Source of the DNA: Angustibacter luteus
GTDB taxonomy: Bacteria > Actinomycetota > Actinomycetes > Actinomycetales > Angustibacteraceae
Length of the DNA: 64,000 bases
Assembly (NCBI RefSeq): GCF_039541115.1
Contig: NZ_BAABFP010000002.1
Span: 682,001-746,000, forward strand
Direction: 5' to 3'
Positions 8,297 to 63,075 of this stretch are shown in pieces. Position numbers and translations under genes: made by a program. Every line of letters begins with the position of its first letter. Position 1 is the first letter of the stretch. The notes beneath the pieces are model-generated. The model had not been told where the DNA came from and did no database searches. It was given only the letters and a program-made list of their open reading frames with translations.

Positions 8297-8319
8297 CCCC
8301 ACCGCCCCCCCACCCCCCG

Positions 8320-8389
8320 CCGCGGTGATCATGCACGTTCGCCCCATCGGCGCAGGCCGGGGCGGGGCGAACGTGCATGATCACCGCGG
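8320..8389. repeat. REP/MITE-like palindrome, family A copy 1 (possible bidirectional terminator)
   Basis: Perfect 26-bp inverted repeat CCGCGGTGATCATGCACGTTCGCCCC (8320-8345 / 8364-8389), C-rich left and G-rich right flanks, between convergent genes. Confidence 0.9.
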
Positions 8390-8406
8390 GTGGGGGGTGG
8401 TGGGGG

Positions 8407-19075: not shown

Positions 19076-19612
19076 TCAGGACCCGCCGAAACCGACCCCG
19101 CCCGAACGGCGCGAGCGCAGCCGCTCGCCCTTGGTGCGGGCCTGCGCGCCGAGGTCGTCCTGGAACGCCGACATCTTGCGGCGCAACGACTCTGCCTCCT
19201 CACCGGCGCCGGACCCGAGGATCCGGACGGCGAGCAGGCCGGCGTTGCGGGCGCCGGCCACCGAGACCGTGGCCACCGGCACACCGGCCGGCATCTGCAC
19301 GATCGACAGCAGTGAGTCCATGCCGTCCAGGTACTGCAGCGGAACTGGCACGCCGATCACCGGCAGCGGGGTCACCGAGGCCAGCATGCCGGGCAGGTGG
19401 GCGGCGCCGCCGGCGCCGGCGATGATCACCCGCAGGCCACGGTCGGCCGCCGACGTCCCGTAGTCGAGCATCTCGCGGGCCATCCGGTGCGCGGAGACGA
19501 CGTCCACCTCGTGCACGACGCCGAACTCGTCCAGCGCCTTGCTCGCGGCCTCCATGACCGGCCAGTCCGAGTCGCTGCCCATCACCACGCCGACCAGCGG
19601 GTTCGCACTCAT
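19076..19612 (-). CDS. purE: N5-CAIR mutase
   Basis: [37 protein letters not shown]. Confidence 0.97.
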
Positions 19613-20871
19613 TCGGTCACCACTCCCTGGATGTAGTCCGCCGCGTGCCGGGCCCGCTCGCGCAGGTCGGCCAGGTCGTCCCCGCACACCGTCACGTGCC
19701 CGATCTTGCGTCCGGGCCGCACCGACTTGCCGTACAGGTGCACCTTGAGCGACGGGTCGTGCGCGAGCACGTGCTGGTACGTCGTGTACAGGTCCGGGTA
19801 GTCGCCCCCGAGCACGTTGGCCATCACGGTCCACCGGGCGCGCGGGCGGGTGTCGCCGAGCGGCAGGTCGAGGACGGCGCGCAGGTGCTGCTCGAACTGG
19901 CTGGTCACCGAGCCGTCGATCGTCCAGTGCCCGCTGTTGTGCGGGCGCATCGCGAGCTCGTTCACGACGAAGCCCGCCCCCTCCCCCTCGTGATCATGCA
20001 CGTTCGCCCCCGCGGGCCCGCCATCCCGGGGCGAACGTGCATGATCACCGGGGGAGGGGTGGAGCTCGAACAGCTCGACCGCGAGGACGCCGGTGACGTC
20101 GAGCTCACCCGCGATCCGCAGCGCCGCCTCGGTCGCGGCGGCCGCCATCGCCGGCGACAGGCCCGGTGCCGGCGCGATGACCTCGGTGCAGATCCCGTCC
20201 TCCTGCACCGTCTCGACCACCGGCCACGCCGCGGCCTGACCCATCGGGCTGCGCGCCACCAGCACGGCCAGCTCGCGACGGAAGGCGACCTTCTCCTCCG
20301 CGAGCAACGCCTCGCCGGCATCGAGGCGGCCCAGCCAGTCCGCGGCGTCGTCCAGCGAGTCGGCGACGAGCACGCCCTTGCCGTCGTAGCCACCGCGGGG
20401 GGTCTTGACCACCAGCGGCCAGCCCACCTCGTCACCGAACGCGGCGAGCTCGCCCGCGTCGTGCACCGCGGCCCACCGCGGGCAGGGCACCCCGATGGCG
20501 GCGAGCCGCTCGCGCATGACCAGCTTGTCCTGGGCGTGCACGAGCGCGGCCGCACTGGGCCGGATCGTCGCGCCGCCGGCCTCCAGGGCCTGCAGGTGCT
20601 CCGGCGGCACGTGCTCGTGGTCGAAGGTGACGACGTCGCAGTCGGCGGCCAGCCGTTGCAGGGCGGTCAGGTCGGTGTGCAGGCCGGGCGGCGTCTGGGC
20701 CGCGACGAGGGCGGCGCTCGCGTCCGGCGCCTCGCTGAGCACCCGCAACCCCAGGCTGAGAGCGGTCGCCGGGGCCAGCATCATCCGGGCCAGCTGTCCC
20801 GCGCCCACGACCCCCACGAGCGGGAACCCACCAGGGTGGTGGACGGCGTCCGGGGAGCGTTCGTGGTCCAC
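19609..20871 (-). CDS. purK: N5-CAIR synthase (ATP-grasp) carrying an in-frame palindrome-derived insert
   Basis: [45 protein letters not shown]; extra segment [28 protein letters not shown]. Confidence 0.95.
19977..20059. repeat. REP/MITE-like palindrome, family A copy 2, inside purK
   Basis: Perfect 21-bp inverted repeat GTGATCATGCACGTTCGCCCC (19990-20010 / 20028-20048), identical to copy 1 core, with CCCCTCCCCC / GGGGGAGGGG outer arms. Confidence 0.92.
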
Positions 20872-49428: not shown

Positions 49429-49489
49429 CGCACCATTCGCGCTTCACGTGGTTTTCGCGGCCTCATAGCCACAAGTTGCGCGATTGGTG
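49429..49489 (+). repeat. Family B palindrome, left end of DUF559 cassette
   Basis: CGCACCATTCGCGCTTCACGTGGTTTTCGCGGCCTCATAGCCACAAGTTGCGCGATTGGTG. Confidence 0.9.
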
Positions 49490-49591
49490 ACGCTCCTGCT
49501 CCCGTCATCCACAGGATCGGGGTTCGTCACACCGTCCACAGATCGCGTCCGCGGCCAGCGACAGCGTTCATCGGCGGGACATCGTCCTGGC

Positions 49592-50485
49592 ATGCCTCGA
49601 ACAGCCAGACGCCCGACTCAAGACCTACCGCCGGTGTTCCTGGGCCGGGATGCCGTCACCCAAGGTGTCCTGACCCCGAACCAGCTGCGCGGACCGCTCG
49701 TTGAGCGCGTCTTGCAGGGCGTCTACCGTCCGAGCTGGACGCCCCTCACCCACGTGCTCGCGTGTCAAGCAGTGGCACTGGTGCTACCGGACGGCGCCTG
49801 CGTCACCGGCAGGTCCGCTGCCACCATGCGCGGCGTGCCGCTGGCCCGCGTAACCGATCCGGTGGAGGTGTGCGCACCCGAGGCGCTGCGGATGCCGAGC
49901 CGGCGTGGGGTCACGCTGCGACGATCGAAGCGCCCCATCGGCGAGGTGCACGACGTGGACGGCGTACCGCTGGCCAACGCTCAGCGGATGGCGTTCGACC
50001 TCGCCGCGCGGCACCCACTGGCCAGGGCGGTGGGCCATCTGGACGCCGTATCGCGCGCTGGGCTGGTCGACCCGGCAGGGCTCGCGATCTGGTTGGAGAC
50101 GCGCCACGAGAACGACGTGCGCGCCGTCCGTGACGCCGTGGCGCTCGTCGACCCGCGAACAGAGTCCATGCCGGAGTCGATGGCACGGGTCGTCCTGCGC
50201 CAGGCAGGTTTCGACGTGGTGCCACAGTTCGTCATTCGAGCCCGCGGAGAGTTCGTCGCACGGGTCGACCTGGCACTCCCGGAGCTCCGGATAGCCATCG
50301 AGTACGACGGCGCCTGGCACGCCCTGCGTGAACAGCTTCAGCGCGACCGCCGCCGCATCCATGAGCTGAGGCGCGCTGGCTGGATCATTGTCCACGTGAC
50401 GGCGGACATGCTCGCCAACTCCGCACTGCTCATCCATGCGATCGAGGACGCCGTCCGCGCAGCGACCTCCACCATTCGCGCTTGA
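49592..50485 (+). CDS. DUF559 / Vsr-like PD-(D/E)XK-fold endonuclease with AbiEi-like N-terminal region
   Basis: ESMPESMAR, FVARVDLA.PELRIAIEYDGAWH, QRDRRR..LRRAGWIIVHVT; many A/T-ending codons unlike neighbours. Confidence 0.85.
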   Translation: MPRTARRPTQDLPPVFLGRDAVTQGVLTPNQLRGPLVERVLQGVYRPSWTPLTHVLACQAVALVLPDGACVTGRSAATMRGVPLARVTDPVEVCAPEALRMPSRRGVTLRRSKRPIGEVHDVDGVPLANAQRMAFDLAARHPLARAVGHLDAVSRAGLVDPAGLAIWLETRHENDVRAVRDAVALVDPRTESMPESMARVVLRQAGFDVVPQFVIRARGEFVARVDLALPELRIAIEYDGAWHALREQLQRDRRRIHELRRAGWIIVHVTADMLANSALLIHAIEDAVRAATSTIRA

Positions 50486-62524: not shown

Positions 62525-63048
62525 GCCTGCGACTGCGGCCCCTGACGGTCCAGGACGAGGAGCAGGCGCTGGCGGCTCAGGCCGAGCTGGCACCGGACGA
62601 CTTCATGTTCCTGCTCGACACCACGCCCGGCCAGCCCTGGGCAGACTACGTCGGGCGGCTGGCGGCGATCCGCCGCGGCGAGGCCCTCAAGGAGGGCTGG
62701 GTGCCCGCGACGTTCCTGGTCGCCGAGGTGGACGGCGAGATCGTCGGCCGGGTGTCGGTCCGGCACGAGCTCAACGGCTGGCTGACGCGCTACGGCGGGC
62801 ACATCGGGTACGGCGTGCGGCCGCAGTTCCGCCGTCGCGGCTACGCCACCGAGATCCTTCGCCAGGCGCTGCAGGTGGCCCGCGCGGCCGGCGTCGAGCG
62901 GGCGCTCGTGACCTGCGACCTCGACAACGTGGGCTCGGCCGCCACGATCGAGCGCTGCGGCGGGGTGTTCGAGGGCATCGAGCCCGAGAGCGAGGGCACG
63001 ACCGCCAAGCGTCGCTACTGGATCGACGTCCCCCCTCCCCCGCCGTGA
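62521..63048 (+). CDS. GNAT-family acetyltransferase
   Basis: VGRVSVRH.LN, GGHIGYGVRPQFRRRGYA, TCDLDNVGS..TIE.CGG. Confidence 0.9.
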   Translation: MSLRLRPLTVQDEEQALAAQAELAPDDFMFLLDTTPGQPWADYVGRLAAIRRGEALKEGWVPATFLVAEVDGEIVGRVSVRHELNGWLTRYGGHIGYGVRPQFRRRGYATEILRQALQVARAAGVERALVTCDLDNVGSAATIERCGGVFEGIEPESEGTTAKRRYWIDVPPPPP

Positions 63049-63075
63049 TCATGCACGTTCACCCCAGGTGTGAAC
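63031..63075 (+). repeat. Decayed family A palindrome (left arm only) overlapping GNAT stop codon
   Basis: GTGATCATGCACGTTCACCCC at 63045-63065 (20/21 to family A core) preceded by CCCCCTCCCCC; residual GTGAAC right arm. Confidence 0.8.

Follow-up and report, generated by a model that had tools for sequence, protein, structure and literature searches.

How has a palindromic repeat come to lie in the reading frame of purK, which encodes N5-carboxyaminoimidazole ribonucleotide synthetase, in the soil actinobacterium Angustibacter luteus, and what has become of the enzyme? The locus is part of a 64,000 nt stretch of the genome (positions 682,001 to 746,000 of contig NZ_BAABFP010000002.1, assembly GCF_039541115.1), referred to here as the window; coordinates are those of the window unless a genome and contig are named. 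The presence of the repeat in frame within purK, noted in a preliminary description of the sequence, is confirmed. The element is very probably a dimer resembling repetitive extragenic palindromes (REPs), inserted in frame and tolerated in a variable loop with the enzyme presumably intact, and a member of a family that may be spread by a nuclease-like partner gene.

The element comprises two inverted units and a spacer. At its widest plausible extent it occupies positions 19973..20062 and encodes approximately residues 271-299 of PurK; the preliminary description had given 19977-20059, which falls inside this profile-derived extent. Unit 1, on the plus strand, consists of a C-rich outer tract (19977..19989, possibly from 19973; a direct reading, which fits the C-rich profile upstream of the arms) and of arm 1, an exact copy of the 21 nt core GTGATCATGCACGTTCGCCCC (19990..20010, no mismatches). 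A 17 nt spacer (20011..20027) forms the hairpin loop. It is followed, on the minus strand, by the inverted arm 2 (20028..20048), again an exact 21 nt core with no mismatches, and by a G-rich outer tract (20049..20062), which is the C-rich tract of unit 2 seen on the other strand. The two outer tracts lengthen the palindrome beyond its 21 nt arms. These arms are, as first described, identical without mismatch to those of an intergenic hairpin at 8325-8384. The core has five matches in the window at three or fewer mismatches, where 0.01 are expected from 100 shuffles, and the sequence of the purK spacer has no second copy anywhere in the genome.

As RNA, the purK element folds into a single long hairpin at -82.6 kcal/mol (z -8.2), and none of 200 shuffles folds as well; as DNA it folds at -43 kcal/mol (z -8.5). 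No Rfam family corresponds to it: the search yielded just four matches, all to microRNA precursor models and of a generic hairpin kind, which scored 23.6-30.3 bits where the gathering thresholds are 74-99. Four of the six frames through the element are open. TGA occurs in one frame on each strand, inside GTGATCA, and purK uses an open frame. The G+C content at third codon positions (GC3) is 0.74 in the 31 codons of the insert and 0.96 in the other 389 codons of purK.

The host gene (19609..20871, minus strand) is the sole long frame of high GC3 at the location of the element. It encodes 420 amino acids from a GTG start at 20871, and its identification as purK is based on the list of open reading frames (ORFs), on Pfam and on its predicted fold. 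The RS_preATP-grasp-like, ATP-grasp and PurK_C domains are all present at full length and above curated cut-offs (E 7.6e-21, 2.8e-48 and 3.7e-17, respectively), with the ATP-grasp match spanning positions 3-179 of the 179 in the profile. All residues that are invariant across 64 aligned homologues are retained. The AlphaFold model has a predicted local distance difference test score (pLDDT) of 87.5, template modelling (TM) scores of up to 0.89 against solved PurK structures (normalized to the target) and a Foldseek E value of 1.8e-36 against PurK chains. In the alignment with the solved chain 3aw8, residues 18-270 correspond to chain residues 1-250 and residues 300-406 to chain residues 253-352, with two chain residues between the two blocks. 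The open frame, the full-length domains and the aligned structures thus bear out the earlier statement that the frame is preserved and the downstream motifs are intact; the peptide then translated from the insert is correct overall, apart from its flanks, which are off by one residue before it and two after it.

No second purK was found in the source genome, where four other matches are weak and represent other ATP-grasp proteins or translated repeat. Immediately downstream, the stop codon of purK (TGA) and the start codon of purE (ATG) overlap as ATGA; purE (19076..19612, minus strand) encodes a class I type aminoimidazole ribonucleotide carboxylase/mutase family protein (Pfam AIRC, E 1.1e-59). 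PurK is recorded in two lengths, the 420 amino acid form starting from GTG at 20871 and a form of 391 amino acids with a later start (region 20784-20871). The longer form seems the more likely, because the shorter would be without a conserved terminal stretch.

Comparison with PurK from 29 relatives (five of the same genus, nine of the same family and 15 of the same order) reveals that the repeat-derived stretch is missing from every one of them. Between the VELFE strand and the next strand there are 4-14 residues in all 29 orthologues, compared with 31 in A. luteus, where the loop measures 31, 32 or 33 residues according to the counting rule. The net gain in purK is 18-27 codons, depending on the relative, in keeping with the estimate of about 25 amino acids originally attributed to the repeat; against the same-genus species alone, the extra DNA amounts to 54-75 nt. 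One of these species, here G002, has a PurK that is 81% identical and about 105 units of the identical repeat in its genome, and its purK nevertheless lacks any. Of 5.8 billion proteins, the closest (88% identity, 393 amino acids) has a five-residue loop, ETDDG, against 32 residues here, an implied gain of 27 codons. In a metagenome scan with this protein, the best locus was 79% identical, and the contig that encodes the protein itself was not recovered. Soil contigs of other organisms cross the purK site with 19-24 nt, as against 97-102 nt in the window, a difference of 78 nt.

Counted from the first position of the arm, conservation in the family profile, built from 93 units, extends over about -13/-15 to +20, and the profile predicts 85-89 nt for a dimer with a 17 nt spacer. 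This slightly exceeds the net gain at purK, and therefore either a few old codons may have been replaced or part of the outer tracts may be old sequence.

The loop is also variable beyond these relatives. By an alignment-based count from F268 to V302, it has 33 residues in A. luteus and 6-29 in 119 actinobacterial homologues (median 11), of which 15 have at least 20. The view that PurK normally has only a short turn here is thus accurate for near relatives and too narrow for the phylum. Loops approaching the length of the insert, which would have called its origin into question, are absent from near relatives and occur just in distant orthologues, where they are unrelated in sequence. Given this range of lengths, the tip of the hairpin is, to judge from the homologues, a site naturally permissive for length. 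In the AlphaFold model, the strands at residues 261-270 and 301-309 are confident, while consecutive blocks across 271-300 have pLDDT values of 71, 47 and 56. The insert is accordingly predicted to form a loop, disordered and exposed to solvent, where a beta-hairpin has its tip; this agrees with the surface loop that had been anticipated.

The repeat is widespread in the source genome (G000; 4.16 Mb in 11 contigs), in which 93 units are distributed over 47 loci: 13 single, 25 double and nine larger, with three or more units. A reversed control pattern has no match in this genome. Each unit is about 34-36 nt in length, consisting of the C-rich tract and the 21 nt core, and typically begins directly after a stop codon. 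Among the 20 loci with clear coding calls on both flanks, nine lie between convergent genes, ten between co-directional genes and one between divergent genes. The purK copy is the only one of the 47 with a same-frame coding signal (GC3 0.95 and 0.99) and homology on both sides, and the only intragenic copy. Two further loci lie in the window. The sibling copy (8299..8406), which has the same arms (8325-8345, plus strand; 8364-8384, minus strand), an 18 nt spacer and longer C/G tracts, is situated between convergent gene ends and folds as DNA at -60.8 kcal/mol. A solo unit (63030..63065, plus strand) comprises a C-rich tract and an arm at 63045-63065 with one mismatch.

Units occur also singly and in direct arrays, and a single unit does not fold on itself. 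Three of them fold at -1.9, -2.6 and -2.3 kcal/mol, with 174, eight and 20 of 200 shuffles, respectively, folding as well; the unit is hence not itself an imperfect palindrome. Across the family, arm spacing ranges from 5 to 39 nt. In the 25 hairpin dimers, spacer lengths cluster at 7 nt (seven dimers), 16-18 nt (ten) and 38-39 nt (two); the purK spacer belongs to one of the two preferred classes (7 nt and 17-18 nt). The spacer sequences are not shared: none of 66 comparable pairs is identical, and the maximum identity is 72%. The dimers so show fixed distances with no fixed sequence.

A search for other invaded proteins, proposed in the preliminary description, found none. There was no such case at any of the 27 loci sampled in G002. 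In a further genome, G004, two of 55 loci passed the GC3 filter, and by eye both are out of frame or antisense on at least one side. The 33-residue insert peptide, compared with 1.84 billion representative sequences, gave one match, to an unrelated tandem-repeat protein, produced by the summing of many weak matches. Two loci in these genomes are of separate interest. At L232 (G004 C1:193300-194900), a plausible frame passes through a solo G004-variant unit (positions 814-830) and goes on for 177 codons that are stop-free but implausible in sequence; either a stop codon may have been lost, or the frame may be open by chance across a convergent gene. At L122 (G002 C9:268400-271600, at about position 1490), the frame of a gene extends into a repeat cluster, where the TGA in GTGATCA of the first unit terminates it. 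The orthologue in the source genome, which is free of the repeat, stops at its own TGA a few codons earlier, and the repeat at L122 seems to supply the stop codon of its gene.

The claim that the family moves is supported by differences in occupancy between species. Of the listed G002 loci, 27 were sampled, and 16 of these have both flanks collinear in the source genome: the repeat is present in both genomes at five of them, and A. luteus lacks it at the other 11. Such wide differences are as expected for mobile DNA, and at intergenic loci loss and gain would look alike. At purK, gain is the only sensible reading. Because the purK site is empty in all 29 relatives, the repeat-rich G002 included, this copy is strong evidence that the family gains new sites. 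The insertion is probably recent.

A candidate for the agent of this spread is encoded on another contig. REP-associated tyrosine transposases (RAYTs; Y1_Tnp, PF01797) gave no match in the source genome, which is 100% complete; the same search was positive in six of 14 reference genomes used as a control. Instead, an ORF of 304 residues (G000 C4:484153-485103) is bracketed by four units on one side and three inverted units on the other. Orthologues with 71, 63, 65 and 52% identity are present in G002, G004, G005 and G010, respectively. For the ten remaining genomes of the taxonomic family, the best match has 31-40% identity or is absent. In all five genomes with the gene, its locus is flanked by inverted arrays, and the tail of the unit differs between genomes. 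Units of each genome's own variant number 93, 105, 100, 48 and 168 in G000, G002, G004, G005 and G010, respectively, and 0-5 elsewhere, including the ten family genomes without the orthologue. The cassette is found in at least three different genomic contexts. Although the tails differ, all five genomes (L138-L142) retain a short motif, CTGTGGA and then TGA or CAA, in the interval that separates the final upstream unit from where the bracketed gene starts.

The protein is modelled with a pLDDT of 95.5. Its first two thirds clearly match AbiEi-type DNA-binding proteins by fold (6y8q, E 1.1e-5; 1zel, E 8e-4), and its last third resembles the PD-(D/E)xK nuclease I-Bth0305I weakly (TM 0.58, normalized to the target). 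Across 69 sequences, D150, E195, D228, E239 and H246 do not vary. More distant homologues from other species were compared at 78 loci: in 39, the two flanks share an inverted match that is exact over 16 nt or more, and neither of two controls gave any.

Two paralogues in the source genome, each with its own dispersed repeat, bring the number of gene-repeat families to three. The first (49469..50485, plus strand; 34% identical) lies in the window. Its Pfam matches, to MTES_1575 (E 2.8e-8) and to DUF559 (E 9.6e-4), fall slightly short of the cut-offs, and on its flanks is an inverted repeat of its own, about 33 nt long with core CACCATTCGCGCTTCACGTGG. This repeat has 30 units genome-wide, of which those in the window are at about 41046, 49431, 50470, 50508 and 52495. 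The second, at 33% identity, is located outside the window (G000 C4:136356-137888); on its flanks are hairpins formed by a third repeat, which has the core CAGAGAAGTGGGGCACCTGAG and 17 units in the genome.

Bracketing alone is not specific to the nuclease-like gene, since clusters of the repeat at G000 C7:536396-536510 and 537665-537713 enclose an ORF that by eye resembles aspartate-semialdehyde dehydrogenase; the nuclease-like gene stands out in that its bracketing recurs in five genomes. Judged from association, the chances are about even that the repeat is spread in trans by the gene it brackets. A literature search (subscription journals were outside its coverage) found no link of DUF559, MTES_1575 or AbiEi to repeats or transposition, and nothing on REPs together with RAYTs in Actinobacteria. 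The family is apparently a nuclease-linked class that has yet to be described.

These observations suggest the following course of events. A dimer would have entered purK at the tip of the beta-hairpin that follows the VELFE strand, its two units (about 34-36 nt each, C-rich tract plus 21 nt core) inverted with respect to each other across a 17 nt spacer. Read in one of its four stop-free frames, and of such a length that the purK frame is maintained, the dimer would add a net 23-27 residues (about 78-81 nt relative to the shortest relatives), forming a disordered, exposed loop at a position where actinobacterial PurK already varies in length. Both the enzyme and the translational coupling between purK and purE would be preserved. 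This copy may survive because its position and frame are among the few intragenic ones that selection tolerates, the other copies lying outside genes. The family would be spread in trans by the partner, in which a putative winged-helix domain of AbiEi-like type would be joined to a PD-(D/E)xK nuclease domain resembling Vsr/DUF559.

Several findings weigh against this account. Loops of up to 29 residues occur at the same site in other actinobacterial PurK proteins without any repeat, and length alone is therefore no proof of insertion. The loop being itself variable, and other species providing the nearest empty sites, the ends of the insert and any target duplication are not definable: the alignment of orthologues advocated earlier shows that the insert is missing from relatives, but the DNA of five same-genus and three same-family sequences is too diverged to place its boundaries. 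The model has low confidence at residues 311-320 (block mean 53), the conserved PHNSGHW stretch (HNSGHW being invariant) directly after the insert, which may reflect either the insert or the usual mobility of this loop. No public sequencing run matched the purK stretch (best share of words 0.15), so that the insert has no read-level support, and the sole hint of independent support is an identical protein recorded on two contigs, which may or may not be independent. With respect to the partner, the last third of the protein matches Pfam MTES_1575 below threshold (E 3e-4 to 2e-3) and Vsr weakly by fold (E 0.3-0.4), and what links it with the repeat is that the two occur together and vary together in genomes that, being related, are not independent samples.

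The alternative that survives best also derives the insert from the repeat family, and differs in how it arrived. The two units may not have come as one piece; they could have been placed 17 nt apart around ancestral loop codons, leaving the spacer as old purK sequence. Each unit of about 36 nt corresponds to 12 codons, no donor with the purK spacer exists in the genome, and the spacer encodes DGGPA, which can be compared with D/E-x-x-P-G in relatives. The clustering of spacer lengths at 7 nt and 16-18 nt among 25 dimers, no two comparable spacers being alike, is also in its favour. On the other hand, the best match of the purK spacer to the loop DNA of relatives is 11 of 17 positions, and the spacers of other dimers reach 9-12, so there is no signal above chance. 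Five filled and empty intergenic sites, when aligned, are likewise too diverged for their ends to be placed or compared. We regard this route as possible but doubtful. An extension of it, equally tentative, is that the AbiEi-like/Vsr-like nuclease, rather than a RAYT or a DDE transposase, places 36 nt units as inverted pairs 7 or 17-18 nt apart around its target; the purK spacer would then be leftover ancestral loop codons and the purK copy would be fresh. If so, purK would be the first site at which such an event could be read base by base before and after, given an empty allele from the same species.

It is quite unlikely that the insert has been retained for a function, either as an RNA hairpin that sets the stability or translation of the purK/purE mRNA or through a role of the loop in the protein. 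REP hairpins are reported to stabilize or destabilize mRNAs (Di Nocera et al., 2013; PMC3733652), and both arms in purK are still perfect. Set against this, the insert is found in one genome only, its peptide is without a counterpart among the 1.84 billion representatives, its codon usage is foreign (GC3 0.74) and the loop is predicted to be disordered.

Damage to PurK, with the gene decaying to a pseudogene and purines supplied by salvage or another route, is very unlikely. A hairpin of -82.6 kcal/mol in the mRNA, and approximately 26 extra residues between strands that carry conserved active-site motifs, could impair expression or catalysis. Nevertheless, GC3 outside the insert is 0.96, the gene has no stop or frameshift and retains every residue invariant across the 64 homologues, it is a single copy still coupled to purE, and relatives tolerate 20-29 residues at the same site.

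An assembly artefact, in which a copy of the repeat was misplaced into purK during contig building, is extremely unlikely: no public run contains the stretch, the contigs of four runs (80% likeness) cover both flanks and leave 19986-20051 uncovered save for trace depth in one run, with the contigs that do bridge the site belonging to other organisms, and family repeats coincide with contig ends in fragmented relatives, but the copy is inside a 1.3 Mb contig, the identical protein is recorded twice, and a mis-join would not be expected to yield together a spacer unique in the genome, a preserved frame and the use of a stop-free frame.

Insertion of a REP-like dimer in frame therefore remains the preferred explanation. 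In-frame palindromic inserts in working genes are a known way in which selfish DNA creates new protein sequence, described mainly in Rickettsia and in the GTAG/CGTC REPs of proteobacteria. The purK case extends the phenomenon to a high-GC actinobacterium and, as the genomic associations suggest, to a repeat family partnered by a gene for a DNA-binding, nuclease-like protein in place of a RAYT. Unlike the intergenic copies, it has a target context conserved enough to be reconstructed. It also marks the hairpin tip after the VELFE strand of PurK as a permissive site, and offers a natural test of the load of disordered sequence that an ATP-grasp enzyme can carry.

The parallel first drawn was with the Rickettsia palindromic elements (RPEs), and it is apt as an analogy. 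RPE-1 is about 100-150 bp long, and we know of no partner gene described for RPEs. Di Nocera et al. (2013; PMC3733652) describe RPEs as palindromic repeats that are also intergenic, that occur in frame inside genes likely still to encode working proteins, and that end in CGTC. The purK repeat appears similar in being an intergenic palindrome that is also inserted in frame in a gene, a likeness of behaviour only. It differs in that the hosts belong to different phyla, and the A. luteus unit lacks CGTC, is shorter and has a partner gene.

The GTAG/CGTC REPs are the subject of the same study, the main text of which does not contain the word Actinobacteria. There they are mostly located just downstream of genes, convergent or co-directional, with few inside ORFs, and the intragenic examples, from many species, are in more than half of cases dimers or groups that encode 20-30 residues (Di Nocera et al., 2013; PMC3733652). 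The purK copy fits the description of an intragenic dimer encoding 20-30 residues. In contrast, the core and flanks of the A. luteus repeat have neither tetranucleotide, a single unit does not fold and no RAYT was found in the genome. With REPs and bacterial interspersed mosaic elements (BIMEs) in general, the family shares a short unit, many copies, a mostly extragenic position near 3' ends and an arrangement in inverted pairs and clusters; it departs from classical REPs in that the single unit is not an imperfect palindrome.

[quoted passage not shown] The A. luteus repeat is likewise short, has inverted repeats and lies in frame in a gene; it lacks the conserved internal sequence or length of a MITE, and its units also occur singly or in direct arrays.

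The REP doublets forming hairpins (REPINs) that accompany RAYTs are presented by Bertels & Rainey (2011; PMC3116915) as extragenic, hairpin-forming inverted doublets, more conserved than singlets, with a dedicated single-copy gene flanked by the repeats. The A. luteus system is alike in its dispersed doublets, in its repeat-flanked dedicated gene and in having several gene-repeat families per genome, here three. It is unlike the REPIN-RAYT system in that the flanked gene appears to combine AbiEi-like and PD-(D/E)xK nuclease-like parts and is not an HUH/Y1 transposase. Moreover, the doublet spacers are not conserved, so the doublet with its spacer is not a conserved replicative unit. The insertion in purK is thus an event of a known kind, the intragenic insertion of a REP-type element, and what differs is the partner gene of the family.

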